Notes under the pieces: generated by a model
Seen by the model: only the letters and a program-made list of their open reading frames with translations
Database searches by the model: none
Told to the model about the DNA's origin: nothing
Assembly (NCBI GenBank): GCA_965602015.1
Contig: OZ271918.1
Location: 3,392,001-3,456,000 of the forward strand
DNA from: Salinispira sp.
Lineage (GTDB): Bacteria > Spirochaetota > Spirochaetia > DSM-27196 > Salinispiraceae
Length of the DNA: 64,000 nucleotides
Direction of reading: 5' to 3'
In this document: one piece after another, positions 6,729 through 59,023 of the stretch
Layout: the number at the start of each line of letters is the position of its first letter
Position numbering within the stretch: the stretch's first letter is position 1
Position numbers and translations under genes: made by a program

Positions 6729-7618
6729 ACGCAAAAACCCTGGCTGCCCTTTTGGTTACCATGACCTTTTGGGGCTCTTCCTTCGTGGCGAGCAAGTTCA
6801 TTCTGGAAATCTGGCCGCCCTGGGCGTTTATGTTCCTGCGCTTTTTTTTCGCATCCCTGGTCTTTCTCGTTTTGCTCATACGGAGAAAGAAGCTTTATAT
6901 TCCCCGGGATGTAATCTCCCGCCTTCTTCTCATTTCGCTTTTTGAGCCGGCGCTGTATTTTGTATTCGAAACCCTCGGCCTTCAGCGGACGACGGCGGCG
7001 AGTTCGTCCATTATCATCGCCGCCATTCCCGCAGTGGTCGCCCTCTTTTCGGCACTATTTCTGAAAGAACATCTCAGCGTCAAAGGCTGGGTCGGCACCC
7101 TGCTGTCGATTGCCGGCATCGCGATAATTACCCTGTTGGATTCAAACGCCGCCAGATCATCAAGCTCGCTGCTGGGAAACTTCTTCGTCGTCCTCGCGGT
7201 ATTTTCGGCGACGGGATACATCGTGTTGGCGAGAAGCATAGCCGGACGGATTTCCGCATTGCAGCTGACGGCCTACCAGTCATTTTTCGCGGCCCTGTTT
7301 TTCTCCCCGGGGATATTTTTGCAGGGATCCGCGCTGTTCGCCGCCTCCTATGATCCGTTCTTGATACCGGCATTTTTATTCATCGTCCTGGGAGCCACTG
7401 TTGCGGCATTCCTGGCATATAACTATGCCCTGAGTCAGATTCCCGCGCCAAAGGCGGCGGTATTTATCAACGGAATACCGGTGGTGACGGTAATCGTCGC
7501 ATGGGCCGTTCTCGGCGAAACGCTGAACATCTACCAAATCTTTGGAGGTGGGCTTGCGGTCGGCGGACTGATGCTGGCTAACCGCCGGGAAACCGCAAAA
7601 ATTAATCTCGAAGCGTAA
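6725..7618 (+). CDS. DMT/EamA-family transporter
   Basis: FWGSSF start motif, about 10 hydrophobic segments, two EamA repeats. Confidence 0.88.
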   Translation: MNAKTLAALLVTMTFWGSSFVASKFILEIWPPWAFMFLRFFFASLVFLVLLIRRKKLYIPRDVISRLLLISLFEPALYFVFETLGLQRTTAASSSIIIAAIPAVVALFSALFLKEHLSVKGWVGTLLSIAGIAIITLLDSNAARSSSSLLGNFFVVLAVFSATGYIVLARSIAGRISALQLTAYQSFFAALFFSPGIFLQGSALFAASYDPFLIPAFLFIVLGATVAAFLAYNYALSQIPAPKAAVFINGIPVVTVIVAWAVLGETLNIYQIFGGGLAVGGLMLANRRETAKINLEA

Positions 7619-7744
7619 ACGATGTGCGCCGGTATTTTAGCGGCTATTTAAAATAAAAATTATGTAGTGATGGTATGAAAGCGGTGCCTCCCCCGAGATC
7701 CTGCCAGTCAGGGTCTATATTAAATACCGGAGGAGGACAACCAA

Positions 7745-8797
7745 ATGAGTAGTATTATTATATCCCTCGACAGCCATAAACGGTATACCGTGGCTGCAAT
7801 TGAGGACGAAAAAGGAAGGAAATCCTCACAGCGCATAGAACATTCTCACGGGTGTATTCGTGATTTCCTCCAACAATTTGAGCCGGGACAGGAAGTCGCA
7901 CTTGAAACGATCGGAAGTTGGTACTGGATCGTGGATGAGATTGAGGAGGCCGGCATGAACCCCTTGCTGGTTCATGCCGGTAAGTCAAAATTGATGATGG
8001 CCATGTTTAACAAAACTGACAAACTCGATGCTGAAGGTCTCAATAAACTTCAAAAAACAGGCACACTGCCTACTGTGTGGATTCCACCAGGAGAATTACG
8101 TGATAAACGAGAACTCTATCGAACCCGGATGCAGTTCGTTCAGGAGTTGATACGTGAAAAGAACCAAATTCATGCCGGGTTCGAGAAATATGGGTTTCGA
8201 TTCAATGATGTGAGCGATCTGTTCGGAAAAGCAGGTACAGAAGCCTTGAAGAAGGTAATGCCAAAACTCCCCGAGCATACCCGCACCATGATGAAACTCA
8301 AGCTCGATAATCTCGCGTTTATTAAGCAATCTATCACCGACTGCGAACAACGAATGCATGAAGCGTTTGATGAAAATGCTGAAATGAAGTTGGTGAAATC
8401 CATTCCCGGGATCGGATTTATTCTCAGCGCAGTCATTGTGCATGAAATTGGAGACATACATCGCTTTAAGACCGCTGAACATTTTGCATCATACTGTGGT
8501 ACAACGCCGCGCGTTCACTCGAGCGGAGGTAAAACTCATTATGGTCGAACATCGAAAGCATGTAATCGATACTTGAAGTGGGCACTTACTGAAGCAGCTA
8601 ATGTAACCTGTCTTAATCAAAGAAATTGGGCGAACCGACATACGGTAAAACTCTACAAGAGAGTTCGTACTAAACGAAATCATAAGGTTGCTATAATCTC
8701 TGTGGCACGGCACTTAGCAGAAGCAATATTTTGGATATTGCAGAAAGAACAGCATTACAAAGATCCTGCATTAGCGGGTTTGTCCAGACAGGGGTAA
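7745..8797 (+). CDS. IS110-family transposase/recombinase (DEDD + Tnp20)
   Basis: SLDSHK, ALET, KTDKLDA, SIPGIG, YCGTTP..HSSGG; GGAGGA RBS. Confidence 0.95.
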
Positions 8798-8918
8798 GCG
8801 CGTTTTTGGGGCTACAGCGCGAATACGAGGCTGTGCAAAGTGATTGCGACACCCCTGGAAGGACATTTTCATGCCACGTGGATGGCGGAGATATGACTCG
8901 GACAAAACCGATTTGCAG
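8766..8918 (+). ncRNA. Predicted bridge/seek RNA of the IS1111-type element (copy 1)
   Basis: Nested stems and four guide-like segments matching the target and donor junctions (see findings); boundaries approximate. Confidence 0.7.
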
Positions 8919-8971
8919 AATTTTTGTAATAGAACATTGAAAACTCTTGCGGGGAGGCACCGCTTTCAGAT

Positions 8972-9178
8972 ATGGCATATAACTATGCCCTGAGTCAGAT
9001 TCCCGCGCCAAAGGCGGCGGTATTTATCAACGGAATACCGGTGGTGACGGTAATCGTCGCATGGGCCGTTCTCGGCGAAACGCTGAACATCTACCAAATC
9101 TTTGGAGGTGGGCTTGCGGTCGGCGGACTGATGCTGGCTAACCGCCGGGAAACCGCAAAAATTAATCTCGAAGCGTAA
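8972..9178 (+). pseudogene. Duplicated 3' fragment (68 codons) of the DMT gene
   Basis: Identical to the DMT C-terminus; the ATG is created by the IS-end junction. Confidence 0.85.
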
Positions 9179-9304
9179 ACGATGTGCGCCGGTATTTTAG
9201 CGGCTATTTAAAATAAAAATTATGTAGTGATGGTATGAAAGCGGTGCCTCCCCCGAGATCCTGCCAGTCAGGGTCTATATTAAATACCGGAGGAGGACAA
9301 CCAA

Positions 9305-10357
9305 ATGAGTAGTATTATTATATCCCTCGACAGCCATAAACGGTATACCGTGGCTGCAATTGAGGACGAAAAAGGAAGGAAATCCTCACAGCGCATAGAA
9401 CATTCTCACGGGTGTATTCGTGATTTCCTCCAACAATTTGAGCCGGGACAGGAAGTCGCACTTGAAACGATCGGAAGTTGGTACTGGATCGTGGATGAGA
9501 TTGAGGAGGCCGGCATGAACCCCTTGCTGGTTCATGCCGGTAAGTCAAAATTGATGATGGCCATGTTTAACAAAACTGACAAACTCGATGCTGAAGGTCT
9601 CAATAAACTTCAAAAAACAGGCACACTGCCTACTGTGTGGATTCCACCAGGAGAATTACGTGATAAACGAGAACTCTATCGAACCCGGATGCAGTTCGTT
9701 CAGGAGTTGATACGTGAAAAGAACCAAATTCATGCCGGGTTCGAGAAATATGGGTTTCGATTCAATGATGTGAGCGATCTGTTCGGAAAAGCAGGTACAG
9801 AAGCCTTGAAGAAGGTAATGCCAAAACTCCCCGAGCATACCCGCACCATGATGAAACTCAAGCTCGATAATCTCGCGTTTATTAAGCAATCTATCACCGA
9901 CTGCGAACAACGAATGCATGAAGCGTTTGATGAAAATGCTGAAATGAAGTTGGTGAAATCCATTCCCGGGATCGGATTTATTCTCAGCGCAGTCATTGTG
10001 CATGAAATTGGAGACATACATCGCTTTAAGACCGCTGAACATTTTGCATCATACTGTGGTACAACGCCGCGCGTTCACTCGAGCGGAGGTAAAACTCATT
10101 ATGGTCGAACATCGAAAGCATGTAATCGATACTTGAAGTGGGCACTTACTGAAGCAGCTAATGTAACCTGTCTTAATCAAAGAAATTGGGCGAACCGACA
10201 TACGGTAAAACTCTACAAGAGAGTTCGTACTAAACGAAATCATAAGGTTGCTATAATCTCTGTGGCACGGCACTTAGCAGAAGCAATATTTTGGATATTG
10301 CAGAAAGAACAGCATTACAAAGATCCTGCATTAGCGGGTTTGTCCAGACAGGGGTAA
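9305..10357 (+). CDS. IS110-family transposase/recombinase, copy 2
   Basis: Identical protein to 7745-8797. Confidence 0.95.
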
Positions 10358-10478
10358 GCGCGTTTTTGGGGCTACAGCGCGAATACGAGGCTGTGCAAAG
10401 TGATTGCGACACCCCTGGAAGGACATTTTCATGCCACGTGGATGGCGGAGATATGACTCGGACAAAACCGATTTGCAG
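10326..10478 (+). ncRNA. Predicted bridge/seek RNA (copy 2)
   Basis: Identical to 8766-8918. Confidence 0.7.
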
Positions 10479-10532
10479 AATTTTTGTAATAGAACATTGA
10501 AAACTCTTGCGGGGAGGCACCGCTTTCAGATA

Positions 10533-10680
10533 TGCCCCGAAAACAGCTGATTTAAACAGCGTAAACCGTTTGCATAATGTGATTTGTCTCTCATCCAATG
10601 AAGCCATTGATAAAACTCCTGTTTTTTATTTTCACACAGCGAGTTACACCGCACAAATCAGCTGTTTTCGGGGCAGTACC
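10533..10680. mobile_element. MITE, left TIR interrupted by IS110 (stub TGTAG at 9223-9227)
   Basis: Near-identical to 44323-44470; TIR ...TGCCCCGAAAACAGCTGATTT / AAATCAGCTGTTTTCGGGGCAGTACC. Confidence 0.85.
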
Positions 10681-10712
10681 TAAAAATAACGAGATGGGGG
10701 TATACTGTTCAT

Positions 10713-11777
10713 ATGAAAACTCTGAATCCTGCGCTTAAGGCCGTTATATATGTCGTCGCCGGAATTGCCGCGCTGTGGCTCATCATTCTGCTGCTCAATA
10801 TCCTGCCCTGGGCTCCGGGCTATCCCGGAGTTAATCCTATGCGCATCGAAGCCGGCCAGCGGCCGCACATTGTTCCCCATGGCGGGGCAAAGGAACTGTA
10901 CCCCGAAAATACCCTGCTGAGTTACCGGAGAATGCAGGAAAACGGGTGGAACACCTTCGAGGTCGACCTGTGCCTCACCGCCGACGGTCAGCTTATAACC
11001 CATCACGATTTGTCCATCGAGAGAACGTCGGGCATCCCGGGGGTACTGGTCCGCGATATGAGTTATGCGGAGCTGAGCGCTATCAACTTCGGCGTGAATT
11101 TCACCGATCCCGGCGGTCGTATGCCATATGCCGATGAGCAAACCCTCTCTCCCGAGCTTCGTCGGCTCCTGGGCCCAGCCCGGCTTGCCGATCTGTTTGA
11201 GAACTACCCTGAGAACTACTACATACTCGAGCTGAAGGATACGGTGGACGCCAGCGGCGCCGCGAATGCCGAGGCCGCTGTGCTGGAGCTTATTCGGCTA
11301 ATTGAAACCTACGGAATGCAGGACAGGGTTGTGGTCAGCAGTTTTGATGACGATGTCACTTCCGATTTTCGCGAGCGCACGGGAGGCAGCATTCCCACCG
11401 GAGCGGCGACCATGGACACCTTGATTTTCTCCGTCCTCTCGGCTCTTAATCTCGATTTTTTTATCGCCCCGGCGTACTCGGCGGTAATGCTTCCCGTGCG
11501 GGACATTATTTATCCGAACGAGCGGGCAATCATCGAACGTCTTCCGAGGGGATTGAGGAACAAGCTGTCGAGTTACGATGAGGCGAGCGACACCCTGTAC
11601 ACCAATCTTGCCAACCGGCGCATGGTAAGGGATGCCCACCGAAAGAACCTCGCGGTCTATTACTGGACGGTAAATGACCGGGAGACCATGGAATTTCTTA
11701 TCAACATGGGCGTCGATGGAATAATCACCGACAGACCTGATATTCTATCCGATCTTCTCGACGAAATGGGCCTCTGA
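10713..11777 (+). CDS. Glycerophosphodiester phosphodiesterase, N-terminal membrane anchor
   Basis: HGG...PENTL, EVD..LTADG.L...HD, ELK, WTVND, GVDGIITDRPD. Confidence 0.9.
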   Translation: MKTLNPALKAVIYVVAGIAALWLIILLLNILPWAPGYPGVNPMRIEAGQRPHIVPHGGAKELYPENTLLSYRRMQENGWNTFEVDLCLTADGQLITHHDLSIERTSGIPGVLVRDMSYAELSAINFGVNFTDPGGRMPYADEQTLSPELRRLLGPARLADLFENYPENYYILELKDTVDASGAANAEAAVLELIRLIETYGMQDRVVVSSFDDDVTSDFRERTGGSIPTGAATMDTLIFSVLSALNLDFFIAPAYSAVMLPVRDIIYPNERAIIERLPRGLRNKLSSYDEASDTLYTNLANRRMVRDAHRKNLAVYYWTVNDRETMEFLINMGVDGIITDRPDILSDLLDEMGL

Positions 11778-44317: not shown

Positions 44318-44470
44318 GGTAGTGCCCCCAAAACAGCTGATTTAAACAGCGTAAATCGTTTGCATAATGTGATTTGTCTTTCATCCAATGAAGCCATTGA
44401 TAAAACTCCTGTTTTTGATTTTCACACAGCGAGTTACACCGCACAAATCAGCTGTTTTCGGGGCAGTACC
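44318..44470. mobile_element. MITE, intact 153-bp copy
   Basis: 26-bp TIRs with 2 mismatches: GGTAGTGCCCCCAAAACAGCTGATTT / AAATCAGCTGTTTTCGGGGCAGTACC; second copy at 10533. Confidence 0.85.
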
Positions 44471-45264: not shown

Positions 45265-46026
45265 TTAGAAGTCAACGACTCCGATTTTCATTCGATCCTT
45301 CATCCGATACGAGTCTCCTTTCAGGCTGATCACATGGGAGTGATGAAGCAGCCGGTCCAAAGTGGCCGTAGCAACTGCGTCATCAGTCATGATTTCTCCC
45401 CACTTCCCGAATACTTTGTTGCTGGTCAGAATGATTGATCCATGCTCATAGCGGGTATTGATCAGCTGGAAAAACAAGGCTGCCTGCTCAGCATTCAGGT
45501 TTTCATACCCAACTTCATCAATCAACAGAACGTGGGGTTTGCCAAACCAGGTCAGTTTGTTTTTCAATCTTCCCTGATCCCGGGAACGCTGTAATCGTTC
45601 AAGCAAATCAAGACAGCTGATGAAATAGGCCGTATACCCATTCATACATGCCTTCTGTCCAAGCGCTGTCATGAGGTGCGTTTTACCCAATCCACTGGGA
45701 CCAAGCAGAATGACATTCTCTTTACGTTCAATGAACGCAAGGGTGGACAGTTCGTTGAACTGCTTGTGTGTAAGACCGCCTTTCGGCCATGACAGATCAA
45801 AGGATTCAAGATTCTTTCCCTGGGGAATTCCTGAAACCTTCAAGCGGGTTTTGGCCATTCGTTCCTTTCGGGGAATCAGTTCCAGATCAATGAGTTCTCC
45901 GATCGCTTCAATCAGAGGCGCATCCTGATTCACCTGGCTTGAGAGAAAACTGTCCAGACCGGCAGCCATGAAGCTCAAACCCAACTCTTCCATACGGGCT
46001 GTAATCATTGTGCTTTTACTAGTCAT
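45265..46026 (-). CDS. istB: IS21 helper AAA+ ATPase
   Basis: GPSGLGKT, LLIDEVGY, TSN, LDRLLHH...G.SYR. Confidence 0.95.
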   Translation of the reverse strand: MTSKSTMITARMEELGLSFMAAGLDSFLSSQVNQDAPLIEAIGELIDLELIPRKERMAKTRLKVSGIPQGKNLESFDLSWPKGGLTHKQFNELSTLAFIERKENVILLGPSGLGKTHLMTALGQKACMNGYTAYFISCLDLLERLQRSRDQGRLKNKLTWFGKPHVLLIDEVGYENLNAEQAALFFQLINTRYEHGSIILTSNKVFGKWGEIMTDDAVATATLDRLLHHSHVISLKGDSYRMKDRMKIGVVDF

Positions 46027-47273
46027 GAGGCCGCCTCCTGCAGTGCAAACAAGCGGTCGTACTCCCCAGGTGAGCGGACATCAACATCGGTAGAAACCTT
46101 TATCCGTTTTCTTCTCTTGGGTATCCGGTACTGCCTTTTCCAGAGCTCGGTCAGCGCCGCTGAGTGTTCAGCCAGGTAGAACCGTTGATTTCGCAATTCG
46201 AGGTTAAGCATGAAGGTTCGGATGATCTGATCCTCTGATGATACTTCGGCCTCACCGGTGAGCGGATCGATACGTACAATTACCTCTGCACCAATGAATT
46301 GCGGGTGAACGCTGTACCAGTTGTTTCTCACCCGTACCAGAGATTCACCGGAGACACGCACATTGGTCGGTTTCCGGTAATCAAACGGCTGCGTTGGTAA
46401 GGGGGTAAGGAAAGCCTTTTCATGCGTAAAGCGTTCTGATCGGCTTTCATTGAGCCCGCCGATGACTCTGTGGCTGATATCCTCGCACCAGGTGATGACT
46501 GCTTCGTTTAACTCAATCAGTCCAGCTGGCAGTGCTTTGTGCTCGATCCAGAAGTTGTTCTCGTAGAACTGGATGAACCGTTCGACCTTTCCTTTGGTCT
46601 GAGGCCGGCGGACCTGGCATCGGCGGGGTGTGAATCCATAGTGCCGGGCCAGAGACAGCAGGTGCTTGTTGACCTGCCATTTCTCCTCTGCGGCCTGGTA
46701 GATAAAGGCGGTTTTCATGTTGTCGTACAGGATTTCTTCCGGCACCCCGCCAAAATATGTGAATGCCAATACGTGGCACATCAGAAAGGTGGCCATGTCC
46801 ATGCTCGTGGTATGAATGACAAACGGCATTCTCGAGTAGCCGAATACCATGACAAAGGCATAGAGTTTCTGCCACCGTCCGTCCACCAGCTGTTTTCCCA
46901 GGATTTTCCAATCCACCTGAGCCTGGTAGCCCGGTTCGGTTTCGAACCGGATAACTGCCTGTTTTGTGATATCTGCAGCCTTCCTGGCAGCATAATCCCT
47001 GAGGATTGTGACCCCGCCATCGTATTTCTGTTTTCGCAGGTTCCTCAACAGAACCTCCCGATTGAAGGACGGGTCTTCCTCGAGTATAGTGTCGATGTAG
47101 GGTTTGAACGGATCGAGCTTGCTCGTGTAATTCCGCTTCTTTCGAGACCTTGAAGGCTCTGCAAGGTAGTAGTGAACCATGCGTTCACTTTTTCCCAGGG
47201 CTTCGGCGATCTGACCGATTCTCTTACCCTGTTGTTTCAACATCTGTGCTTCATGCATCAGTAGCTCCAGCAT
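46023..47273 (-). CDS. istA: IS21 transposase
   Basis: SKLDPFK.YI, RFETEPG.QAQVDW, YDNMKT, TKGKVER. Confidence 0.95.
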   Translation of the reverse strand: MLELLMHEAQMLKQQGKRIGQIAEALGKSERMVHYYLAEPSRSRKKRNYTSKLDPFKPYIDTILEEDPSFNREVLLRNLRKQKYDGGVTILRDYAARKAADITKQAVIRFETEPGYQAQVDWKILGKQLVDGRWQKLYAFVMVFGYSRMPFVIHTTSMDMATFLMCHVLAFTYFGGVPEEILYDNMKTAFIYQAAEEKWQVNKHLLSLARHYGFTPRRCQVRRPQTKGKVERFIQFYENNFWIEHKALPAGLIELNEAVITWCEDISHRVIGGLNESRSERFTHEKAFLTPLPTQPFDYRKPTNVRVSGESLVRVRNNWYSVHPQFIGAEVIVRIDPLTGEAEVSSEDQIIRTFMLNLELRNQRFYLAEHSAALTELWKRQYRIPKRRKRIKVSTDVDVRSPGEYDRLFALQEAAS

Positions 47274-48618: not shown

Positions 48619-48644
48619 CTCAAACCCCGCAAACATCTAAGTGC

Positions 48645-48761
48645 ATTTAACAACCACTTAACCTGTGAGCCGTACGTTGGCATGGAGTTTGCCCTGCCCT
48701 TCAGGGCAGGACAAGCAAACTCCATGCCAATAGGCGAATCAGGCTGAAGTGCTTGTTATGT
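48645..48761 (-). repeat. attC 2
   Basis: ATTTAAC...GTTATGT palindrome. Confidence 0.9.
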
Positions 48762-48824
48762 AGCTCCTTTTTCATCAGCGCAACCTGTACTACTGACTTT
48801 TTTTATTTCTGCTAATGGCAGCGC

Positions 48825-49379
48825 TTATAAGTTAGTCAAATAATTCTCATTTTGGTTCTTAATTAAGTAATTGAGTACACTAGTTTCCCTTATGATCCAA
48901 GGGAAGTTTCGATTTGCCCCCGGTTTCATTAGGGTTTTATTTTTCTGAAATGCATAGTTTGGTGATACCCATACAGGCACGATTTGGTACTCTTGTTCCA
49001 TCTTTGTCAGATTAACTTCATCGAATTTATCCATATATACTGTGCTCACATAGAAGTAAGAAATCATATGAAAATAATCATACTCCGGCAGAAACGATGT
49101 TCTAAATTCCTCGGTGATTAACGCTAAATCGCGAATTTCCTCTATCCTATATCCCGTCTCTTCATTTATTTCACGAATCAATGTCATTTCATTTGTTTCG
49201 CCTGATTCTTGGCCGCCACCAGGGAAACTGTATTCGCCAAATTTATTTGACTTGATTAAAAGCAATTTTGAATCAGATTTATCGAATATGATTCCACGGA
49301 TGCTTTTGTATGATGCTATTTTAATTTTCGAGTCATTCGGATCAGGGAAATCTACTTCCAAAAATGATAGTTTTTCCAC
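48825..49379 (-). CDS. Cassette: NUDIX hydrolase
   Basis: GGGQESGETNEMTLIREINEETG Nudix box. Confidence 0.88.
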   Translation of the reverse strand: MEKLSFLEVDFPDPNDSKIKIASYKSIRGIIFDKSDSKLLLIKSNKFGEYSFPGGGQESGETNEMTLIREINEETGYRIEEIRDLALITEEFRTSFLPEYDYFHMISYFYVSTVYMDKFDEVNLTKMEQEYQIVPVWVSPNYAFQKNKTLMKPGANRNFPWIIRETSVLNYLIKNQNENYLTNL

Positions 49380-49396
49380 TAAGTCTCCCTGAGTCT

Positions 49397-49496
49397 ACAT
49401 AACAACGCCTTGAGCGGCACGCCGTCAATTGGCGTGGAGTTTGCCCCGCGCAGCGGGAAAAGCAAACTCCATGACAATAGGCGTGTCCGTCTCGAA
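49397..49496 (-). repeat. attC 3, part A (interrupted; part B at 52423-52439)
   Basis: ACATAAC...GTCTCGAA, resuming as CGAAGCGCTTGTTATGC. Confidence 0.9.
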
Positions 49497-49696
49497 TGTA
49501 GCCTCTCAAATTAAATTGATCAAACCAGCATAGAAAATCTCACAAACAGTTAAACAATCTCTCATTCCACTTAGACCGGAAATTTTATCTGCCGACAAAA
49601 AAAGAGCAATGGTGTTGAAGTTTGCCGACTCCCCATTGCTCTTAAAACCTCACCCCCAAAGGGGGCAAATAAACGTTACTTATTTGTCGGATAGTT

Positions 49697-50194
49697 TTGG
49701 AAAAACTTCAAGCGCTTGGGAAACAGTTCCACTGGAAAAAACCTGAATGTTGTCCCGAGTGTGGAAGCATACGGCTATGGGGGCACGGCTTCGTTCTTCG
49801 GCAGTTTGTCGGGTTTGCCCAAGGACTGTGGATGAAGCGGTATCGATGTCCGGACTGCCATGGGGTTCATACCTGTAGGCCACAGCAGTTCTTGCCGGGG
49901 ATGCAATATCCTGTTCAAACTCAAATCTCCAGCCTGGAAGCAAAGCTTGCAGGAAAGCCGTTCCTTCAAACTGTGTCGAGGCAGATCCAGCAGCATTGGT
50001 GGAAGACATTTCTCAACCACTGCCGCCGTAGCGGCAACTGGACTGCCCCACATTCGGTTTTCCTCCGCAGGCAGAGCGATGATCAAATACCAGTAACAAC
50101 CAGGCGAATATACCGTGAGATCTGGTCAGAAGCCTGCGTACCCTACCTGCCTTTTGCGCTGACAGTGAAACCGCGTCCATTTAGCCTTGAGTGA
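49697..50194 (+). CDS. Zn-ribbon accessory protein (DUF6431-like)
   Basis: CPEC...LWGHG...RYRCPDC...H; start uncertain. Confidence 0.7.
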   Translation: MEKLQALGKQFHWKKPECCPECGSIRLWGHGFVLRQFVGFAQGLWMKRYRCPDCHGVHTCRPQQFLPGMQYPVQTQISSLEAKLAGKPFLQTVSRQIQQHWWKTFLNHCRRSGNWTAPHSVFLRRQSDDQIPVTTRRIYREIWSEACVPYLPFALTVKPRPFSLE

Positions 50195-50223
50195 GAAAAC
50201 GTATCACTCTCAAGGAGGAGAAA

Positions 50224-51507
50224 ATGGACAGAGAAAAGAAAGAAAAGATCGCAGTATTCCGCTTCGGGGTCATCTTTCCGCTTGTGGAGAAAGACCTACA
50301 CCAGTATTGGGGAGAGAAAGAGCGAATCCTGCGGGAGCTGGTCAGCAAGGAATGGGAGATTCCCTTTTCAAACCGAAACTACATCAGCAAGGCCACCATC
50401 CTGACCTGGGTAAAGCGCTACGAAGATGGCGGGCGGAAGATTGAAGCCTTGTTTCCTGAGAATCGCGGCGACAAGGGCCGGATGAGAAGCATTTCCGATG
50501 AACAAATCGATGCGCTCATGCTGCTTCGAAAAGAGCATCCAAAACTCTCCACCCCGCGTCTGGTTGAAATTGCTCAAGGAAACGGCGTCTTTCCGTCCGG
50601 AAAAGAGGTCTCCATGGCCAGCATTTACCGGCTCATGAAGATCCGCAAAGCCCAACGGGTCAAAGTCGAGTCTGACATGAGGAAGTTCGAGGTACAATTG
50701 CCCAACGACCTGTGGCAGTCAGACTGCATGCACGGTCCGAAAGTTCTGCATGGCGGGAAACTGAGAAAGACCTATCTGTTTGCAATCATTGACGACCATT
50801 CAAGGCTCATTACCCATGGCCAGTTCTACCTGGCTGAAACACTGGAAAATTACCTGGACTGCTTATGGACGGCGTTACGCAAGCGGGGAGTTCCCCGAAA
50901 GCTCTATGTCGATAACGGGGCATCATTTAAGGCGCACAGGCTCCAGTTGGGATGTGCTTCGCTGGAAATCGGGCTGCGCTATGCACGGCCGTACCGACCC
51001 CAGGGAAAGGGCAAGATTGAACGGTTCTTTCGTACCGTACGTAGCCAGTTTATCCCCGAGCTGCCTGATGAACTTCCTCTGGATGAGATCAACCGGCTGT
51101 TTCACCACTACATTGAAAACGGTTATCACCAGAGGATCCATGGCGGTACGGGGCAGAAGCCCCTGGAGCGTTACCTGCAGGATGCCCATGCCTTGCGAAA
51201 AGCGCCGGAGAACTTGCCTGAATACTTTCGAAAACGCGAGGAGCGAACGGTAAACAACGACCGGACGGTGAAACTCGATGGCCGTTTGTATGAAGCCCCT
51301 GCGGGATTGGTTGGCATGAAAGTCGTCCTGCGTTTTGAGAATTACGACCGGATTGAAGTCTTTCTCGAGAATCAGTCAAAGGGATTCTTAAGGGATCTGG
51401 ATCAGGGAGTGAACAGCCGCATTAAGCGGGACGGCACGGGTCCGGTCATGCCGTCGGCTTCGGGGGGAGCTCTTTTTGAAAAGCTGGGCTCAAAGGCAGG
51501 TAGCTAA
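50224..51507 (+). CDS. DDE transposase (rve core, Mu-like C-terminus)
   Basis: WQSD, IIDDHSR, YVDNG, GKGKIERFF; AGGAGG RBS. Confidence 0.92.
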   Translation: MDREKKEKIAVFRFGVIFPLVEKDLHQYWGEKERILRELVSKEWEIPFSNRNYISKATILTWVKRYEDGGRKIEALFPENRGDKGRMRSISDEQIDALMLLRKEHPKLSTPRLVEIAQGNGVFPSGKEVSMASIYRLMKIRKAQRVKVESDMRKFEVQLPNDLWQSDCMHGPKVLHGGKLRKTYLFAIIDDHSRLITHGQFYLAETLENYLDCLWTALRKRGVPRKLYVDNGASFKAHRLQLGCASLEIGLRYARPYRPQGKGKIERFFRTVRSQFIPELPDELPLDEINRLFHHYIENGYHQRIHGGTGQKPLERYLQDAHALRKAPENLPEYFRKREERTVNNDRTVKLDGRLYEAPAGLVGMKVVLRFENYDRIEVFLENQSKGFLRDLDQGVNSRIKRDGTGPVMPSASGGALFEKLGSKAGS

Positions 51508-52313
51508 TGGATACGCTGCGCCACCACTTTGGATTCCGGCACAACCCGTTCCCGCAGAATGTAGCGGTAAAGGACCTGTACCCCTTACCGGCATTGGAAC
51601 CCCTGCGGCAGCGGGTGTTCTTTGCCCTGGAGCAGAAAGCCATTGCCGTCATCACCGGAGATGTGGGGTCGGGAAAGTCTACGTCATTGCGCTATGTCTC
51701 AAGCAAATGCCATTCGAGTGAGTATGAACTGATTACCATTGTCGGCGGGAACTTCTCACCCATGGAACTGTACCGGCAGATCCTGCTCACTTTCGGCATG
51801 AGCTATATGTCGTTCCAGGTATCGATCATGATCTCGAAGATCCGGGAGCTTATTCTGGAAATTGCATCCCGCAATGTCATCCCGGTGCTGGTAATCGATG
51901 AGGCTCATCTGCTGAAACGGTCAGTGTTTACCCAGCTGCATACCCTTGCTCAGTTTGAATTCGATTCCAAACCGGTCATGCCGATGATTCTCTGCGGTCA
52001 GGATTTCCTGCTCGATCATCTGATGGCTAACTCAGTTCGGCCTCTGGCGTCCCGGGTGCTGGGCAAGAATCATCTGGAGTCTATTAAGAAGGAGGTGATG
52101 GAAGATTACCTGAATCATCACATCACCCTGGCCGGGGGAACAAAGAAAGCATTCAGTGATGAGGCGATCTTTGCCATTCATCAGGGATCCGGTGGTCTCT
52201 TGCGGAAAGCCAACTCCCTGGCGAAAACGGCTCTCCTTGCCTGCGCCGGAGATGGTGGACAGACTGTTTCTGCAGAACACGTCCGGGTCGCTTCCACCGA
52301 GATTTTTATGTAA
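51507..52313 (+). CDS. ExeA/GspA-like AAA+ ATPase
   Basis: HFG...NPF, GDVGSGKS, VIDEAH, LCGQ. Confidence 0.9.
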   Translation: MDTLRHHFGFRHNPFPQNVAVKDLYPLPALEPLRQRVFFALEQKAIAVITGDVGSGKSTSLRYVSSKCHSSEYELITIVGGNFSPMELYRQILLTFGMSYMSFQVSIMISKIRELILEIASRNVIPVLVIDEAHLLKRSVFTQLHTLAQFEFDSKPVMPMILCGQDFLLDHLMANSVRPLASRVLGKNHLESIKKEVMEDYLNHHITLAGGTKKAFSDEAIFAIHQGSGGLLRKANSLAKTALLACAGDGGQTVSAEHVRVASTEIFM

Positions 52314-52320
52314 ATGCTGC

Positions 52321-52344
52321 CCCTGCCGCGAATGCGGCAGGGGG
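52321..52344 (+). terminator. Hairpin after the ATPase gene
   Basis: CCCCTGCCGC-GAAT-GCGGCAGGGG. Confidence 0.6.
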
Positions 52345-52433
52345 TACCCTTCGTCAGTTTTACTTGTAAAATTGTTTGTCTGTACGTGCGAGGGTTAGGC
52401 TAATTTAATGTGCGAAGCTACACGAAGCGCTTG

Positions 52434-53228
52434 TTATGCAGCGACCTCTTTCCTCATGGTACTGCTGTTGCCCTTTATCATGAATCGAGTCAACAAAAGC
52501 AAGATTCCAAGCAAAAAGATTGTGACTATCCATCGCATCATCGATGGAAAATCCAATGTATTTAAAAACAGGTCCCCAATATATCGAGAAGATAAATTTA
52601 CGATTCCATGAATTAGAATTGCGAAGTGAATTGAATAACCTTGAATAATAATCCAACCAAGAAAAAATCCTAATACAAGAGTAAATGAAATAAGGAGGAT
52701 GGTGCCATGAATAAGTGCAAAACAGATTGTGGATACAATAAGCGATGTATATTTATAATTTTCGGTAAACGGCAGGACATCCCGAAAGATTAGCTCTTCA
52801 ATAATTGGTGATAGGATCCCAATTGAGATCAGAGTGAATATTTTTCTTGTATTGTCTCCTGTGTCATACATTTGAATTATCTGGGATATTTCAATTTCAG
52901 CTTGTCCGGGAAAAAATATGTGTCCGATATTCCATGAAAATGAGATGAAGCTTATTCCCCAAAATAGCATAATCAATACCTGAAAGGGATCCATCTCCGG
53001 TTTTTGAAATACATTCGAAAATAATCTTTTGCTTGGGAGCAATAGCATAAGAATTAGAAAGATAAATTTTCCAATAGCTACCCGTTCGGGAAACTGTGAA
53101 GATGGATTGATGCTTATATTATATCCAGTATCATTTTGGGTAATTGTTGTGGATGCAAATACGAGAGTAAGAAAATATAAGAATACCAGGAGAAGCATGA
53201 ATAGTAAGGGTTTTCCTGGAAATTTCAT
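52434..53228 (-). CDS. Cassette: CPBP (CAAX/Abi) intramembrane metalloprotease
   Basis: EELIFR, FALIH, AILIH..VN. Confidence 0.88.
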   Translation of the reverse strand: MKFPGKPLLFMLLLVFLYFLTLVFASTTITQNDTGYNISINPSSQFPERVAIGKFIFLILMLLLPSKRLFSNVFQKPEMDPFQVLIMLFWGISFISFSWNIGHIFFPGQAEIEISQIIQMYDTGDNTRKIFTLISIGILSPIIEELIFRDVLPFTENYKYTSLIVSTICFALIHGTILLISFTLVLGFFLGWIIIQGYSIHFAILIHGIVNLSSRYIGDLFLNTLDFPSMMRWIVTIFLLGILLLLTRFMIKGNSSTMRKEVAA

Positions 53229-53261
53229 ACTCGGTGTATCCTATAAATCATTCTTGCGTCT

Positions 53262-53378
53262 GCATAACAACCACTTAACCTGTGAGCCGTACATTGGCAT
53301 GGAGTTTGCCCTGCCCTTCAGGGCAGGACAAGCAAACTCCATGCCAATAGGCGAATCAGGTTGAAGTGCTTGTTATGC
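53262..53378 (-). repeat. attC 4
   Basis: GCATAAC...GTTATGC. Confidence 0.9.
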
Positions 53379-53807
53379 ACCCTCTAATATTTCGCTTTTT
53401 ATTTTTTCTATTGTCTGAAGCGCATTATTTATCAAAGGGAAAAGCAGTTCCTGATCGAGCATAAATCCATATGAATGACGAAAGAAATGTCGAAAACTCT
53501 GATAATCACGGACCGATTCATAGGTTTCTTTTGAAATGATTTTTCGATCTGTTATTAGCGTTAATAATTCTGAATGCCATTTTGGTCCATCAGGAATTTT
53601 AATTTCCTGATCTGTTAATATTAGTACGAAAATTTTTTCTATTCCGTTATAGATCGAATGTAGCGTGGTGGCCGCTGCTCTTACTTGAATTTCATCAATC
53701 CGATTTGCTGTGAAAAGTGGTATGAGAATTTTGGTAAGTTCGGCTTCCTTTAGGATTTGAGAAAATTCAAATTGGATATCATCTTTTGCTTCAGGCGACA
53801 CGTTCAA
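53373..53807 (-). CDS. Cassette: HEPN (HepT-like) ribonuclease toxin
   Basis: YNGIEK, WH..LL, RHFFRHSY (RX4H). Confidence 0.85.
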   Translation of the reverse strand: MNVSPEAKDDIQFEFSQILKEAELTKILIPLFTANRIDEIQVRAAATTLHSIYNGIEKIFVLILTDQEIKIPDGPKWHSELLTLITDRKIISKETYESVRDYQSFRHFFRHSYGFMLDQELLFPLINNALQTIEKIKSEILEGA

Positions 53808-54081
53808 GTTTTTTTCTATCTCTTAATCTTCGACTAAAATCATGATCATAATCCAAGCCGATTAAGTCTACACTTCGGCTTAGTTTTTCAATGAGCTCCC
53901 CGTATGCCGTAAAAAATTTGCTTTTAGGGAGGCCGACGACCGCGATATCGATATCCGAATTATCCGTGAAATTTCCTTCAATTAAGGATCCAAAGATATA
54001 GATTTCACGGCATCCAAACTTCAGAAGAATTTCTTTTGCGAGATCTATATCTTCTTTGGTCTTTGTATCTGCCTTAATCAT
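53791..54081 (-). CDS. Cassette: MNT minimal nucleotidyltransferase antitoxin
   Basis: IFGS......SDIDIAV...VDL. Confidence 0.88.
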   Translation of the reverse strand: MIKADTKTKEDIDLAKEILLKFGCREIYIFGSLIEGNFTDNSDIDIAVVGLPKSKFFTAYGELIEKLSRSVDLIGLDYDHDFSRRLRDRKKLERVA

Positions 54082-54088
54082 TAATCCA

Positions 54089-54117
54089 ATTCTATTTTAT
54101 AGATTTGAAAAACACAA
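54089..54117 (-). promoter_or_regulatory. Cassette-internal sigma70 promoter
   Basis: TTGTGT-17-TAGAAT, 7 nt before the ATG. Confidence 0.65.
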
Positions 54118-54162
54118 GAATTCGGTAAGACTGCTTGTTAATCTAAAATATTAAAAAAGTGT

Positions 54163-54260
54163 GCATAACAACCACTTAACCTGTGAGCCGTACATTGGCG
54201 CGTGTTTTTGCGAATGCAAAAACCGTGACAATAGGCGAATCAGGTTGAAGCTTGTTATGT
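54163..54260 (-). repeat. attC 5 (short variant, 2-bp deletion near one core)
   Basis: GCATAAC...GAAGCTTGTTATGT. Confidence 0.85.
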
Positions 54261-54262
54261 GG

Positions 54263-54496
54263 TCATTTATCATGCTGTTCAGGTTCTGTATTGGGAACCT
54301 TTTTCAATATCTCTTTGTATTTGTCAGTGCTGCCCGACTTTGCTCGTTCGCTAAGATAATTTTCCGTTTCTAGTGCAGTGATTTTTTCAGCAACTGCAGC
54401 AGCGATAAACTGATTTATCGAGACATGATCTTCTTTCGAGAACCGCTTCACTGATGCGTGAAGAGAGTCTGGGATTCTTATACTCAACGTACTCAT
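54263..54496 (-). CDS. Cassette: ribbon-helix-helix (HicB/CopG-like) antitoxin
   Basis: LSIRIPDSLH......SINQFI..AVAEK. Confidence 0.8.
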   Translation of the reverse strand: MSTLSIRIPDSLHASVKRFSKEDHVSINQFIAAAVAEKITALETENYLSERAKSGSTDKYKEILKKVPNTEPEQHDK

Positions 54497-54921
54497 TTGT
54501 CCTCCTCAAGGATTTGCAGGAATTCATATGGCGTAATTGCTGAAATACCAAATGTGCTGGCTCGTTCAAAGTCTTTCACATTGTACGTAATTATCCATTT
54601 TGCATTTGCGGCTACCGCAACCTCAAGTAAATGATCATCATAAGGATCTTTGAGAATTGGTCGCCATAGATAATATACTTTGATATGTCTCCCAATCTTG
54701 CATAGGTAATCAATAATTGCCTGTATGTCCTGGTCTGAATAAATTTTCTTATCTAGTTTCTTTTTCAGTATTGCCTCGTATTCAAGAATGACCGGAACAG
54801 AAATTGAAATATTGAATTTCTCTTCCGCTAAAAGCTGGAGAATCTGAAAGGACTTTCCGTTTCGGCTACCTAAACCAGATAATAGGACATTGGTATCGAG
54901 AATTGCTTCTTGCTTCTCCAT
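54493..54921 (-). CDS. Cassette: PIN-domain toxin
   Basis: LDTNVL, EYE, DPYDD..LEVA, TYN.KDF. Confidence 0.88.
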   Translation of the reverse strand: MEKQEAILDTNVLLSGLGSRNGKSFQILQLLAEEKFNISISVPVILEYEAILKKKLDKKIYSDQDIQAIIDYLCKIGRHIKVYYLWRPILKDPYDDHLLEVAVAANAKWIITYNVKDFERASTFGISAITPYEFLQILEEDK

Positions 54922-54927
54922 AAAGGT

Positions 54928-54955
54928 ATTATATATGATACCGAAATACTTTCAA
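54928..54955 (-). promoter_or_regulatory. Cassette-internal sigma70 promoter
   Basis: TTGAAA-16-TATAAT, 6 nt before the ATG. Confidence 0.7.
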
Positions 54956-54966
54956 GTGTAGAGTAA

Positions 54967-55206
54967 TTACCAAATATAAAACATTGCATATGTCAGAGGA
55001 ACTACTACTATGGGGGACAGAAAGACTATTACAAGTGAAGGAAATTTCTGTTCTTTTCTTTTTTGATTAGAATATTGATTCAGAATTTTGATCCAATGCT
55101 GTCCATCCAATTCAATATTATTATCGATTAAGTATTTCTCCATAAGTGCCGCGCCTATGGCCTGGGGAACAATTATTAATAAGAATAGAATGAATATAGG
55201 AAGCAT
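54967..55206 (-). CDS. Cassette: small two-TM hypothetical protein
   Basis: AGGAG RBS; two hydrophobic segments. Confidence 0.6.
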   Translation of the reverse strand: MLPIFILFLLIIVPQAIGAALMEKYLIDNNIELDGQHWIKILNQYSNQKRKEQKFPSLVIVFLSPIVVVPLTYAMFYIW

Positions 55207-55241
55207 TCAGGCTCCTAGTCCTCGTTTGTAAATCTTGATCC

Positions 55242-55355
55242 ACATAACAACCACTTGAGCGGCGAGCCGTCAATTGGCGTGGAGTTTGCCCGCCGTCAGG
55301 CGGATCAGCAAACTCCATGACAATAGGCGAGTCCGTCTCGAAGTGCTTGTTAAAT
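55242..55355 (-). repeat. attC 6
   Basis: ACATAAC...GTTAAAT. Confidence 0.9.
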
Positions 55356-55369
55356 GTCCTATATGTATA

Positions 55370-56389
55370 TTAAACCGCCAGTTTAAAATCTGAGAGACCG
55401 TGACTCTCCAAGACCTCATTATATTTTTCGATGAAATCCGATTTTCCTTCAAGGATTAAAAAGATCTCTTCGAGTCCAAATCGAGCTAAAAGCATTCCGA
55501 AAAGTTCTGTTCCGAATAAGTAGTTTGGATATTGAGACAATTGCTTCTCGGATGAATCGATTCGTCCTGATGTGAACCATTTCTTATAGATTTTCCCCAT
55601 ATCAATATTTGGATTATTTGAAACCTCGGCGAAGTCATCACAAAATTGGCTGAAGTAATATGTATAGTGAGCACGGAAATAATCCCAATCATCAACCTCA
55701 ATCACATAATTCTTTCTAGCGGGTTCGATGATTGGTGAGAATAATGTCTCAGGATGGTTGAAGGATTTAATAGCTAATCCTTCGAATGCGAAGAAGAATA
55801 AAAATTCCTGCCAATTATCGAGATCTGAAAAGTTCGCAAAATATTTTTGGAACCCTATATGGTGTAATTCATGTGCGATGAGATTTTCTAACTGCTGGAT
55901 AGATTCATATTGTGTGAGTGCTTCAATAAAATCAAAGTGGATTACGTTTTTATATGGCCATCCAAAACTATTCCCGATTCCCACAGTGATGAGTATATCG
56001 AAATCTGGAAGTTGAATATTCTTAGGTAGTTTTTCAGCTGCTTTTACTTTCGCAGCTGTGATCACGCTCTCCCACCCTTTGGTAAATCCTTTCCATTTCG
56101 ATTTGATAACCTCAATATTGTTTAGCAGTTGCACAATCCGTTTTATATGCGGATGAGAATCATTATTCACTGGAGTAGGTTTCTGTCCTGAGAAGCCAGA
56201 AATTGTCTCAATTATTTCAGGAGTTGGAAAGGAAAACTCTGAATCCCTGGAAGTATATCGTTCGATTTCCAAAAGATAATCTTCGTGTTGATATAGTTTT
56301 GAGATATCATTTTTCGGCACAACGCCGTTTAAAATTTGATCGGTGAGATTGAATAAGACGGGTATTGTAGCTGAACGTAAAGTTCCCAT
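55370..56389 (-). CDS. Cassette: putative Zn-dependent protease (HExxH)
   Basis: AHELHH...EGLA. Confidence 0.7.
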   Translation of the reverse strand: MGTLRSATIPVLFNLTDQILNGVVPKNDISKLYQHEDYLLEIERYTSRDSEFSFPTPEIIETISGFSGQKPTPVNNDSHPHIKRIVQLLNNIEVIKSKWKGFTKGWESVITAAKVKAAEKLPKNIQLPDFDILITVGIGNSFGWPYKNVIHFDFIEALTQYESIQQLENLIAHELHHIGFQKYFANFSDLDNWQEFLFFFAFEGLAIKSFNHPETLFSPIIEPARKNYVIEVDDWDYFRAHYTYYFSQFCDDFAEVSNNPNIDMGKIYKKWFTSGRIDSSEKQLSQYPNYLFGTELFGMLLARFGLEEIFLILEGKSDFIEKYNEVLESHGLSDFKLAV

Positions 56390-56406
56390 TAATTCACCTT
56401 AGGTAC

Positions 56407-56523
56407 ATTTAACACTCGCTTGAGCTGCGAGCCGAAATTGGCGTGGAGTTTGCCCTGCCCTCCTGGGCAGGAATAGCAAACTCCATGACAATAGGCGAGT
56501 CAGACTCAAAGCGTTTGTTATGA
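56407..56523 (-). repeat. attC 7
   Basis: ATTTAAC...GTTATGA. Confidence 0.9.
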
Positions 56524-57204
56524 CGCGCTTTTCTGTTTATGGCAGGACATCTGAGCTAAATAAATCTGTAAGTCTTCTTCAGATATACCACTGCTTTCAA
56601 GAGCTCGCCAATTGCCAGAGTCCTTTAAATTTTGAAATAGTTCTTTGACTGATACTGATAAATCTTCGCCATAATATTTTCCGGTCATCTGATATATTTG
56701 TTGTGAAATTGTAATGGTCTTAAGGATATCTTGCTTTAGGGTGGCATTATAACAAAGGTGTCCACCTACTGCATAAACCAGAAAGCCTTTCTCAGTAAGA
56801 TGATTTTCTTCATCAATAAACTCTCTTTTTCTTAGAAGTCTGTAATTTTCGTCTTCATTTTCAGGTTTAATTCTGAAATAGCATTGTTGTAGTATTTTCC
56901 AAATTTCTTTTTTTGAGAGCAGAGAGAAAAAGTCAGAAACGGTAGTGAAGTCTTCGAGATAATTTCCAATCGCATATGTAGGCAAGTTGGTTGTATACCA
57001 TCCATTTTTTAAATCATATGCGAGCAATTGAGATAAACCTTGATGTGAATTTTCATGGACAGTTTTTTTTAGGTTTTCAAGGGCAACATCGTGTCCACAT
57101 ACTGCACTTGTCGATTCTATTTTGGAGTCTAGTTCTGCAAGCTTGATTTTCAATCGAGTGATCTCTTGTTTCAAGAACACAGGATTTTCTTCTGATTGAT
57201 TCAT
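56518..57204 (-). CDS. Cassette: hypothetical protein
   Basis: 228-aa ORF filling the cassette, stop inside the attC core; N-terminal coiled coil. Confidence 0.7.
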   Translation of the reverse strand: MNQSEENPVFLKQEITRLKIKLAELDSKIESTSAVCGHDVALENLKKTVHENSHQGLSQLLAYDLKNGWYTTNLPTYAIGNYLEDFTTVSDFFSLLSKKEIWKILQQCYFRIKPENEDENYRLLRKREFIDEENHLTEKGFLVYAVGGHLCYNATLKQDILKTITISQQIYQMTGKYYGEDLSVSVKELFQNLKDSGNWRALESSGISEEDLQIYLAQMSCHKQKSAS

Positions 57205-57287
57205 GTTGCCCCCACATCTTATTAGAGATTACAAACATAATATCATAATTATCATTAATTGAAACTAAGAAAATATTTTTTGCGTCG

Positions 57288-57408
57288 TCATAACAACCAC
57301 TTGAGCGGCGAGCCGTCAATTGGCGTGGAGTTTGCCCTGCCCGATTAGGGCAGGAATTAAGCAAACTCCATGACAATAGGCGAGTCCGTCTCGAAGTGCT
57401 TGTTATAT
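57288..57408 (-). repeat. attC 8
   Basis: TCATAAC...GTTATAT. Confidence 0.9.
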
Positions 57409-57436
57409 TTCAACTCCAATCAACAGTTTTGTTCCT

Positions 57437-58195: not shown

Positions 58196-58214
58196 GCAAT
58201 TTCCCCGGTTGTAA

Positions 58215-58369
58215 ATATAACAACCACTTGAGCCGCGAGCCGTAATTGGCGCGTGTTCTTGCGCCGTACCTCCCTGCAGGCTTCTTCTTTTGATTGTACC
58301 CGTAGTTCCCCTCACCGCTCAAGCAAGAACCGTGACAATAGGCGAGTCGGCTCAAAGTGCTTGTTATAT
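58215..58369 (-). repeat. attC 9 (155-bp long-loop variant)
   Basis: ATATAAC...GTTATAT with a unique central insert. Confidence 0.85.
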
Positions 58370-58903
58370 TGCGCACATCTTTAGGCAATCTTTTTGGTTT
58401 TTGGCTTTCAGGATATAGCAGTTTTTCGATATGATCGCAGTCAGTGAATACAAGCAGATAGGTTTAGTATCCCACGAGCCAAATACCAAAGCGCGGATGA
58501 ATTTGCCGGATGCGGCAATCTGCTATGCTTTGATTTCGGTTTTTCATATCATTTCAATTTGCGCAGGGTACAAAATAGCACCTGGCTTTCAAATCGATGT
58601 TCGATCTGAATCAGAAAAAATAGATCACTGGCAAGAGATGCGAGGACAATGACCGAAAATCACTGATTACTTTGTAATAAAGCCACGCGGCAATTTCGAG
58701 CCTTTCAGAGACCATAGATTGGTGCACTATTTGCCGATCGGATCACACAGTTCAGTGCGCCAAAAATGACTTGAGCTGTGAACCTCGGCAGAATACGAAT
58801 CAGGCGTTATAGCCGTTGACTCAGCAGTCACAGAATTCCAGAACCAAAATAAATGAAGCGGCTAAATTCGACTGCAACTTCGGTTTATGCATTTCCTGAG
58901 TCC
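58370..58903. other. ORF-less cassette with extensive predicted base-pairing
   Basis: No ORF of 60 aa or more in the cassette orientation; several nested inverted repeats. Confidence 0.65.
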
Positions 58904-59014: not shown

Positions 59015-59023
59015 CGCCCCTTT

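Follow-up and report, generated by a model that had tools for sequence, protein, structure and literature searches.

The window analysed here, a stretch of 64,000 nucleotides (nt) of a Salinispira sp. genome (contig OZ271918.1, positions 3,392,001 to 3,456,000), carries at positions 7670-8974 an unnamed insertion sequence (IS) of the IS110 family, IS1111 type, which is 1305 bp long when one TG is counted. The subject of this report is a structured region at its right end that begins within the transposase gene (tnp) and is predicted to encode a guide RNA. The product of tnp matched PF01548 (39.3 bits, residues 8-145) and PF02371 (93.7 bits, residues 215-295) in Pfam and, in NCBIfam, the 'IS110 family RNA-guided transposase' NF033542 (224 bits, cut-off 140). 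D9, E54, D92 and D95, which we take to be the DEDD residues, are invariant in an alignment of the recombinase with its relatives. The C-terminal domain contains the motif G--P----S(T)G, in which G252, P255 and G261 are invariant in the same alignment and S260 is nearly so. Perfect 18-bp subterminal inverted repeats (7676-7693 and 8951-8968) are extended outwards by 6 nt on the left and 4 nt on the right, and the non-coding stretch after the tnp stop codon is 177 nt, compared with 75 nt between the left end and the start codon. Since it combines a DEDD recombinase, subterminal repeats, TG and a long downstream non-coding region, the element belongs to the IS1111 group as described in PMC11187229 and PMC11208160. 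The initial annotation, made from the letters of the window, had already assigned it to this type, and correctly. Features of the element and its surroundings are collected in Table 1.

Table 1. Positions in the window of the IS1111-type element, its predicted RNA and the occupied target; MITE, miniature inverted-repeat transposable element; pairing and double changes are counted over 51 aligned RNAs
Feature	Positions	Strand	Remarks
Left TG core copy	7668-7669	+	target-derived (gtag-TG); only sequence common to both junctions
Left end	7670-7693	+	ATGGTA extension 7670-7675, then subterminal inverted repeat TGAAAGCGGTGCCTCCCC 7676-7693
tnp	7745-8797	+	350 amino acids; IS110-family DEDD recombinase; stop codon 8795-8797
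P1 5' strand (outer stem)	8775-8785	+	CGGGTTTGTCC; inside tnp; 9 of 11 pairs doubly changed
P2 5' strand	8789-8795	+	CAGGGGU; partner 8851-8857 (ACCCCTG); 93.4% of cells paired; 8 of 9 pairs doubly changed
P3 5' strand	8799-8802	+	CGCG; partner UGCG 8845-8848; closes target loop
5' target guide	8803-8812	+	UUUUUGGGGC, plus G8802; complements top strand right of core: G of TG plus CCCC[G/C]AAAA(C)
P4 hairpin, target module	8813-8835	+	U, ACAGC 8814-8818, loop, GCUGU 8830-8834, G; 5 of 7 pairs doubly changed
3' target guide	8836-8842	+	CAAAG-UG; identical to top strand left of core plus core
3' strands of P3 and P2	8845-8857	+	P3 8845-8848, P2 8851-8857
5' donor guide, clade register	8864-8871	+	CAUUUUCA; opposite TG plus ATGGTA; 4 Watson-Crick and 2 G-U pairs of 8
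Alternative left-donor segment	8867-8876	+	UUUCAUGCCA; 9/10 to bottom strand of 7671-7680; overlaps P5
P5 hairpin, donor module	8872-8887	+	U, GCCA, loop CGUGGA, UGGC, G; 98.8% paired
3' donor guide	8889-8895	+	AGAUA-UG; identical to last 5 nt of right end plus core
P1 3' strand (outer stem)	8900-8910	+	GGACAAAACCG
Right end	8951-8974	+	subterminal inverted repeat GGGGAGGCACCGCTTTCA 8951-8968, GATA 8969-8972, TG core 8973-8974
Second element copy	9230-10534	+	identical; its RNA at 10335-10470
148-bp MITE	10533-10680	+	occupied target is its left terminal inverted repeat; member of repeat family D8 (97% identity); empty copy 44323-44470

The genome, a single 3.87-Mb contig, holds nine full copies of the element and one interrupted copy (G000:C1:1706985-1709280), whose first 58 bp and positions 378-1305 are split by about 1.3 kb of other DNA. 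The copies differ at 0 to 17 of the 1305 positions. Within 8775-8910 two copies vary, by one base each (8861 in one and 8880 in the other), and no guide is changed in any copy.

These copies define the target. The initial annotation had reconstructed the empty site as GTAG-TG, and this was confirmed by the unoccupied MITE, where the site at 44320 reads gtag-TG-CCCCCAAAAC, and by the flanks of the other copies. Left junctions read AG-TG at all nine distinct insertion sites, and right junctions read CCCC[G/C]AAAAC in eight of ten, four with G and four with C. The two others are the right junction of the interrupted copy, CCCCTAAGCTTG (CCCCTAAG), which is a partial match to the target, and the junction of a tandem duplication that is considered below. 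Insertion is site- and orientation-specific, with no duplication beyond the shared core. There are 124 TGCCCCNAAAAC sites in the genome; a right end of the element precedes eight of them, which leaves 116 free. AG precedes TG at 65 of the free sites and AC at 28, so that random choice among sites would give AG at nine of nine with a probability of about 0.005; the preference agrees with the AG present in the 3' target guide of the RNA.

The TGCCCCNAAAAC sites occur as inverted pairs. A spacing of 142 bp identifies the MITEs, and nine pairs that are 1246 bp apart belong to a 1251-bp IS with AGTGCCCCCAAAACAGCTGAT at both ends (for example G000:C1:15717-16967, with eight further copies). This IS encodes a 377-residue protein that has no match in Pfam and only sub-threshold matches in NCBIfam, to IS1 and ISL3; the IS is probably the autonomous counterpart of the 148-bp MITEs. 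The IS1111-type insertions are found in three MITE ends, three ends of the full 1.25-kb IS, two solo or degenerate repeat ends and one partial match, and three of the nine copies of the 1251-bp IS hold such an insertion in one end. The target is the terminal inverted repeat of the 1.25-kb IS and its MITEs, entered 2 bp inside the tip, in the form AG-TG-CCCC[G/C]AAAAC. A MITE end had been named as the target in the initial annotation; MITE ends are indeed occupied, and the target has to be widened to the repeat that they share with the 1.25-kb IS. The guide RNA would account for the restriction of the element to the ends of a single IS/MITE family, and by the same reading 65 more AG-TG sites should be open to insertion.

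The predicted RNA lies downstream of tnp and starts inside its coding sequence, as originally proposed: P1 begins within the last 23 nt of the gene and the stop codon is inside the fold. The outer stem (CGGGTTTGTCC/GGACAAAACCG) and the stems CAGGGGT/ACCCCTG and ACAGC/GCTGT are where the initial annotation had placed them, as are the four segments that it read as guides, GTTTTTGGGGC (8802-8812), AGTG (8839-8842), TTTCATGCCA (8867-8876) and AGATATGA (8889-8896). The stems are reproduced by the minimum-free-energy fold (z -2.08, 5 of 200 shuffles as good), and the fold of 8775-8910, at -49.5 kcal/mol (z -2.94), was equalled by 1 of 200 shuffles. No family of Rfam release 15 matched 7400-10800 at E up to 1, so that the RNA is without a curated model there.

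Further evidence comes from relatives. Recombinase homologues number thousands, the closest outside this genome being 60% identical. Among 61 genomes of the same order, four (this one included) matched at E ≤ 1e-30, the best outside this genome being 49-50% identical; a complete genome of the same genus gave no match at that threshold, and the plasmid collection yielded no named close relative, all its matches being under 60% identity and those listed about 30%. A scan of one genome per species gave 80 loci with 47-56% identity in Spirochaetota, Planctomycetota, Acidobacteriota and other phyla. Common ends were present in 64 of 81 oriented loci, which repeat the left-end layout of the window element: TG, 6 nt and TGAAAGCG... 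on the left, and ...CGCTTTCA, 4 nt and TG on the right. That TG occurs in all 64 is true by construction, because the search pattern demanded TG together with the conserved ends. The strict end patterns removed 15 of the 81 loci and two more had no stop codon in the locus; L014 and L015, on the other strand, are outside the analysed set. Among the 15, eight have an end of the form TTTCAGA[G/T]A-TG with a variant repeat (L013, L090, L032, L044, L045, L087, L061 and L068), L101 has a CG core, L049 is N-masked in the stretch viewed, L026 has only N around its ends, L057 stops at a contig end, and inspection of L028, L037 and L086 showed no right end within the stretch viewed.

Fifty distinct RNAs from these relatives were aligned with the window RNA (168 columns) under a hand-written structure of 36 pairs in five helices. 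Over the 51 RNAs, 85.5% of the cells are standard pairs, compared with 32-42% when partners are slid by one to three columns, and 276 cells are doubly changed, compared with 52-86; the observed pairing and double-change values were reached in none of 500 shuffles. RNAalifold recovered P2, P3 and P5 unaided. In the MAFFT alignment the window row is shifted by one column at P4, and P3 is invariant, so that covariation speaks neither for nor against that helix. P5 takes the forms GCCG/CGGC, GCCC/GGGC and GCUG/CAGC in relatives and GCCA/UGGC in the window element.

The initial annotation had looked to a covariance model of homologues for support, and such a model, built from the 50 relatives without the window, hit the 64 kb at two places only, 8768-8916 and 10328-10476 (92.3 bits, E 5e-22). 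Over the whole genome its matches numbered ten, all within copies of the element. The region 8775-8910 folds as the seekRNA or bridge RNA of a large clade, with helices that covary. The earlier description of this recombinase RNA as 'distinct' has to be given up, since the clade is widespread, a model that omits the window matches the window RNA, and the published IS1111 pattern fits.

Both modules of the RNA are built alike across the clade, with a 5' guide whose last bases, CA, are complementary to TG, then U, a hairpin, G, a 3' guide of 5 nt plus UG, and A. An exact-match scan puts each element's own flanks at both guide positions in most loci. When the guides were scored in fixed alignment columns, reduced to distinct targets, the 5' target guide fitted the element's own right flank (6 nt) at a mean of 4.82 of 6 positions and the flanks of others at 2.13 (n = 38), the 3' target guide fitted its own left flank (5 nt) at 4.0 of 5 and those of others at 1.6 (n = 38), and the 5' donor guide fitted the first six bases of its own left end at 3.77 of 6 and those of others at 2.81 (n = 31). 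For none of the three was a value as high reached in 20000 permutations. The 3' donor guide equals the last five bases of the right end in all 51 RNAs (AGAGA in 35, AGATA in 14, AGATT in one and ATACA in one). The guides of relatives follow their own flanks, which is the covariation between guide and target that the initial annotation had looked for.

Particular loci are instructive. L065 and L088 have 112 of 117 scaffold columns in common and only 6 of 12 guide columns, and their targets differ. L101 has a CG core at both junctions and CG at the core positions of both its 3' guides. No columns of the RNA vary more than those of the target guides (1.62 and 1.75 bits), unpaired though these are. 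From this natural variation the RNA appears to be programmable. In L101 (contig JBKBVM010000257.1, locus about 640-2000), a natural core change, the 5' donor guide keeps CA. The left flanks of L097 and L070, GGGTTCGAATCCCGT-TG and GGATTTGAACCAGCGACCTT-TG, resemble the ends of tRNA genes, which suggests that tRNA genes may be the targets in their sub-clade.

In the window element itself, the two target guides (8802-8812 and 8836-8842) face each other across a loop closed by P3 and P4 and overlap at the G of the core. Chance was gauged by dinucleotide-shuffling the 153-nt non-coding region 1000 times. The 10/11 match to the target was reached in eight shuffles and the exact 8-mer AGATATGA in 30, and both together in one. 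The 9/10 donor match of TTTCATGCCA was reached in 80 and is thus not, alone, beyond chance. Of the four guides read around the TG core in the initial annotation, the two target guides and the right-end donor guide stand; the fourth, TTTCATGCCA, which overlaps P5, probably does not.

Given this anatomy, the covarying fold, the correspondence between guides and flanks in the genome and in relatives and the membership of the RNA clade, all of which are observed, the region 8775-8910 very probably encodes the seekRNA or bridge RNA of the insertion sequence at 7670-8974. The outer stem P1 encloses a target module (P2, P3 and P4) and a donor module. The target module is an internal loop, whose 5' strand UUUUUGGGGC would pair with the top strand right of the core, and whose 3' strand CAAAG-UG would pair with the bottom strand left of the core and with the core. 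The donor module is a multi-loop around P5, in which the 3' strand AGAUA-UG matches the right end plus core and the 5' strand CAUUUUCA would pair with the core and the first bases of the left end. In the mechanism proposed, the DEDD recombinase would bind the RNA, the circle junction (right end-TG-left end) would be aligned with AG-TG-CCCC[G/C]AAAAC, and strands would be exchanged at TG. By analogy with ISEc11, ISKpn4, ISPa11 and IS621, we infer that the element expresses this RNA, that the recombinase binds it and transposition requires it, that the intermediate is circular and that exchange occurs at the core. A script scan found a candidate promoter at the circle junction (TTGCGG-18 nt-TATGAT, 8 of 12 positions, with the -10 hexamer spanning the junction), which is a consensus match only; counts of promoters and terminators in the scan of 7550-9300 were close to shuffle expectation.

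Several points weigh against this interpretation. The 5' target guide of the window element ends in C then U, not CA then U, and leaves the first core base unpaired. It shares this feature with six other RNAs (7 of 51 in all), and it is long, pairing with ten bases of the right flank when G8802 is counted. Its U opposite the variable base of the target forms U-G at G-variant targets and a U-C mismatch at C-variant targets. The 3' target guide CAAAG-UG fits only AG plus TG here (two of five flank bases), and the 5' donor guide in the register of the clade, with its four Watson-Crick and two G-U pairs, is at the low end for the clade. Furthermore, the relatives share ancestry, so permutation counts overstate independence, and the generality of TG beyond the 64 loci picked by pattern was checked by eye, in the dropped loci. 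Of the sequencing runs listed for this DNA, none is of RNA.

The identity of the left-donor guide is the part of the interpretation with the best-surviving alternative, namely that UUUCAUGCCA (8867-8876) pairs with TGGTATGAAA at 7671-7680, 1 nt inside the left end, and opens P5. Its match is 9/10 with a G-T wobble at the tenth position, and in this register the window element is the sole RNA above 7/10, others mostly scoring 4-6, whereas its score in the clade register is poor. In addition, the right side of the duplication junction, TGGCATATAA, from the TG at 7413, matches the complement of the segment at 8/10, a value reached at 1 of 2000 random TG sites, in a comparison made post hoc. Set against this are the frequency of the match in shuffles (80 of 1000) and the fact that the last four bases of TTTCATGCCA (GCCA, 8873-8876) form the 5' strand of P5, which is conserved and covarying: all 51 RNAs keep this hairpin, and GCCA/UGGC is one of its compensated variants. 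The UUUCAUGCCA register also sets the core-complement CA opposite a second TG (7671-7672) rather than at the crossover deduced from the junctions, and UCAUGCC is constant in the clade while the corresponding bases of the left end vary. This alternative is therefore judged rather unlikely. The left-donor guide of the window element is most likely CAUUUUCA, in the clade register, with which TTTCATGCCA shares five bases. Relatives with the same left end have ACC in place of the AUU of the window RNA, and C-to-U changes thus seem to account for the two G-U pairs.

It is very unlikely that only a short seekRNA (P2 to P4) acts, guiding target choice, while the protein reads the ends through the subterminal repeats and the donor-like segments are conserved for other reasons. 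Such a division of labour would accord with ISEc11, for which PMC11187229 reports that a short seekRNA of 82 nt suffices and that no role has been established for the long form. The donor ends are, moreover, nearly constant in the clade, leaving little variation to test (the 3' donor guide has an entropy of 0.26 bits). However, the four right-end variants are mirrored in all 51 RNAs and the CG core of L101 in its own, the 5' donor segment tracks variation in the left end as scored above, and covariation extends to the outer stem around the donor module.

It is scarcely credible that 8775-8910 holds no guide and is a structured 3' untranslated region of the usual kind, the intrinsic terminator of tnp or a group of DNA sites for protein binding: a terminator scan did find a stem at 8778-8799 followed by GCGTTTTTGG (4 sites, with 1.9 +/- 1.5 expected by chance), but the T run is a variable guide unconserved in relatives, the competing P1 and P2 covary, and the correspondence between guides and flanks over 38 distinct targets would be left unexplained. 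The terminator called at 8778-8809 is likely to be a false positive, since its T run is the 5' target guide and its stem competes with P1 and P2.

In the assembly, the element and the DNA on its left are repeated exactly in tandem (7413-8972 and 8973-10532). The 1560-bp unit consists of 255 bp of the tail of an EamA transporter gene and intergenic DNA, plus the element. The novel junction, right end-TG-GCATATAAC, falls precisely on the terminal TG; at 7413, too, GCATATAAC is preceded by that TG. In four runs of one sample, contigs over 8973-9255 continue upstream into an undisrupted transporter gene, and no contig piece among those listed over 8600-9300 bridges the right end into 8975 onwards. 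The tandem repeat may be a real rearrangement, a subpopulation variant, a flank-plus-IS circle or an assembly artefact.

A role for the RNA in this duplication, as an off-target event in which the right end would have been joined to a pseudo-left-end lying 255 bp upstream, whether directly between sister chromosomes or by way of a flank-plus-IS circle, is unlikely. By hand comparison, the target guides do not account for the junction (the pseudo-site fits the 3' target guide at 0/5 and the 5' target guide at 4/9), nor does the donor guide in the clade register (three Watson-Crick pairs and one G-U of 8). Two observations do fit such an event, namely the position of the junction at the terminal TG and the match of its ten bases to the complement of RNA 8867-8876 described above; an unrestricted scan for any 8/10 match is meaningless, 1513 of 2000 random TG sites having one. 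Alternative circles are on record for ISPpu9, of the IS110 family (PMC12288879). If the event were RNA-guided, the recombinase would be able to duplicate or mobilize host DNA in nature, and the 5' strand of P5, which ends in CA in this element alone, could act as a second donor guide.

Elsewhere in the window, an IS21-type pair is encoded on the minus strand at 45265-47273, comprising a protein of 416 amino acids with rve and Mu-transposase C-terminal domains and an IstB-like ATPase of 253 amino acids. The region 48634-64000 holds at least 11 copies of an imperfect palindromic repeat of about 130 nt (CATAACAAC...GCTTGTTATG), spaced 750-3900 bp apart. These repeats presumably resemble the attC sites that lie between the gene cassettes of integrons.

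Comparison with known systems places the window RNA among those of IS1111 elements. Like ISEc11, ISKpn4, ISPa11 and ISPst6 (PMC11187229), the element combines a DEDD recombinase of about 340-350 amino acids, G--P----SG and subterminal repeats with an RNA from the non-coding region 3' of tnp, and its relatives are redirected naturally by changes in their guides. In the seekRNAs of that paper the segment for the top strand lies 5' of that for the bottom strand, and their matches in the target overlap; order and overlap are the same here. Published seekRNAs have short forms of 70-100 nt and long forms of 145-170 nt (PMC11187229), to which the module enclosed by P2 (69 nt) and the RNA enclosed by P1 (136 nt) would correspond. 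For 93% of the IS1111 elements examined a bridge RNA has been predicted at the right end, and in many IS1111 orthologues the donor-binding nucleotides lie in a multi-loop (PMC11208160). The element differs from those of PMC11187229 in having its own target and TG core and a distant protein (about 30% identity in the plasmid matches listed), and in being known from its sequence. Its RNA also overlaps the end of tnp, of which the extracts of PMC11187229 make no mention.

The bridge RNA of IS621 likewise has target and donor modules, with one guide for each DNA strand and both guides covering a 2-nt core, and its donor side, as here, is more conserved than its target side (PMC11208160). In contrast to IS621, whose left guide, which binds the bottom strand, precedes the right one, the window RNA is at the right end rather than the left and the order of the strand guides is reversed, as PMC11187229 has it for IS1111. 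The donor guides of the window RNA are in a multi-loop closed by P1, P2 and P5 rather than in an internal loop, the core is TG and not CT, and the subterminal repeats are long. A full-text search on seekRNAs listed no structural study of an IS1111-type complex in the literature that it covered. An IS1111-type element with a specific target inside the terminal inverted repeat of another transposable element was reportedly known before; unlike that precedent, the host here is the 1251-bp IS (with a 377-residue protein lacking a Pfam match) and its 148-bp MITEs.

The window RNA is a well-supported further example of the mechanism described in 2024, not a new mechanism, and it does not alter what is known of that mechanism. 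What it adds is a clean natural data set, consistent in itself, for the IS1111 branch, which is much less studied than IS621: a single clade whose scaffold is fixed at about 140 nt and whose core is TG (CG in one relative), with no fewer than 38 different natural targets, both donor guides readable and a recurrent variant (7 of 51 RNAs) in which the 5' target guide leaves the first core base uncovered.

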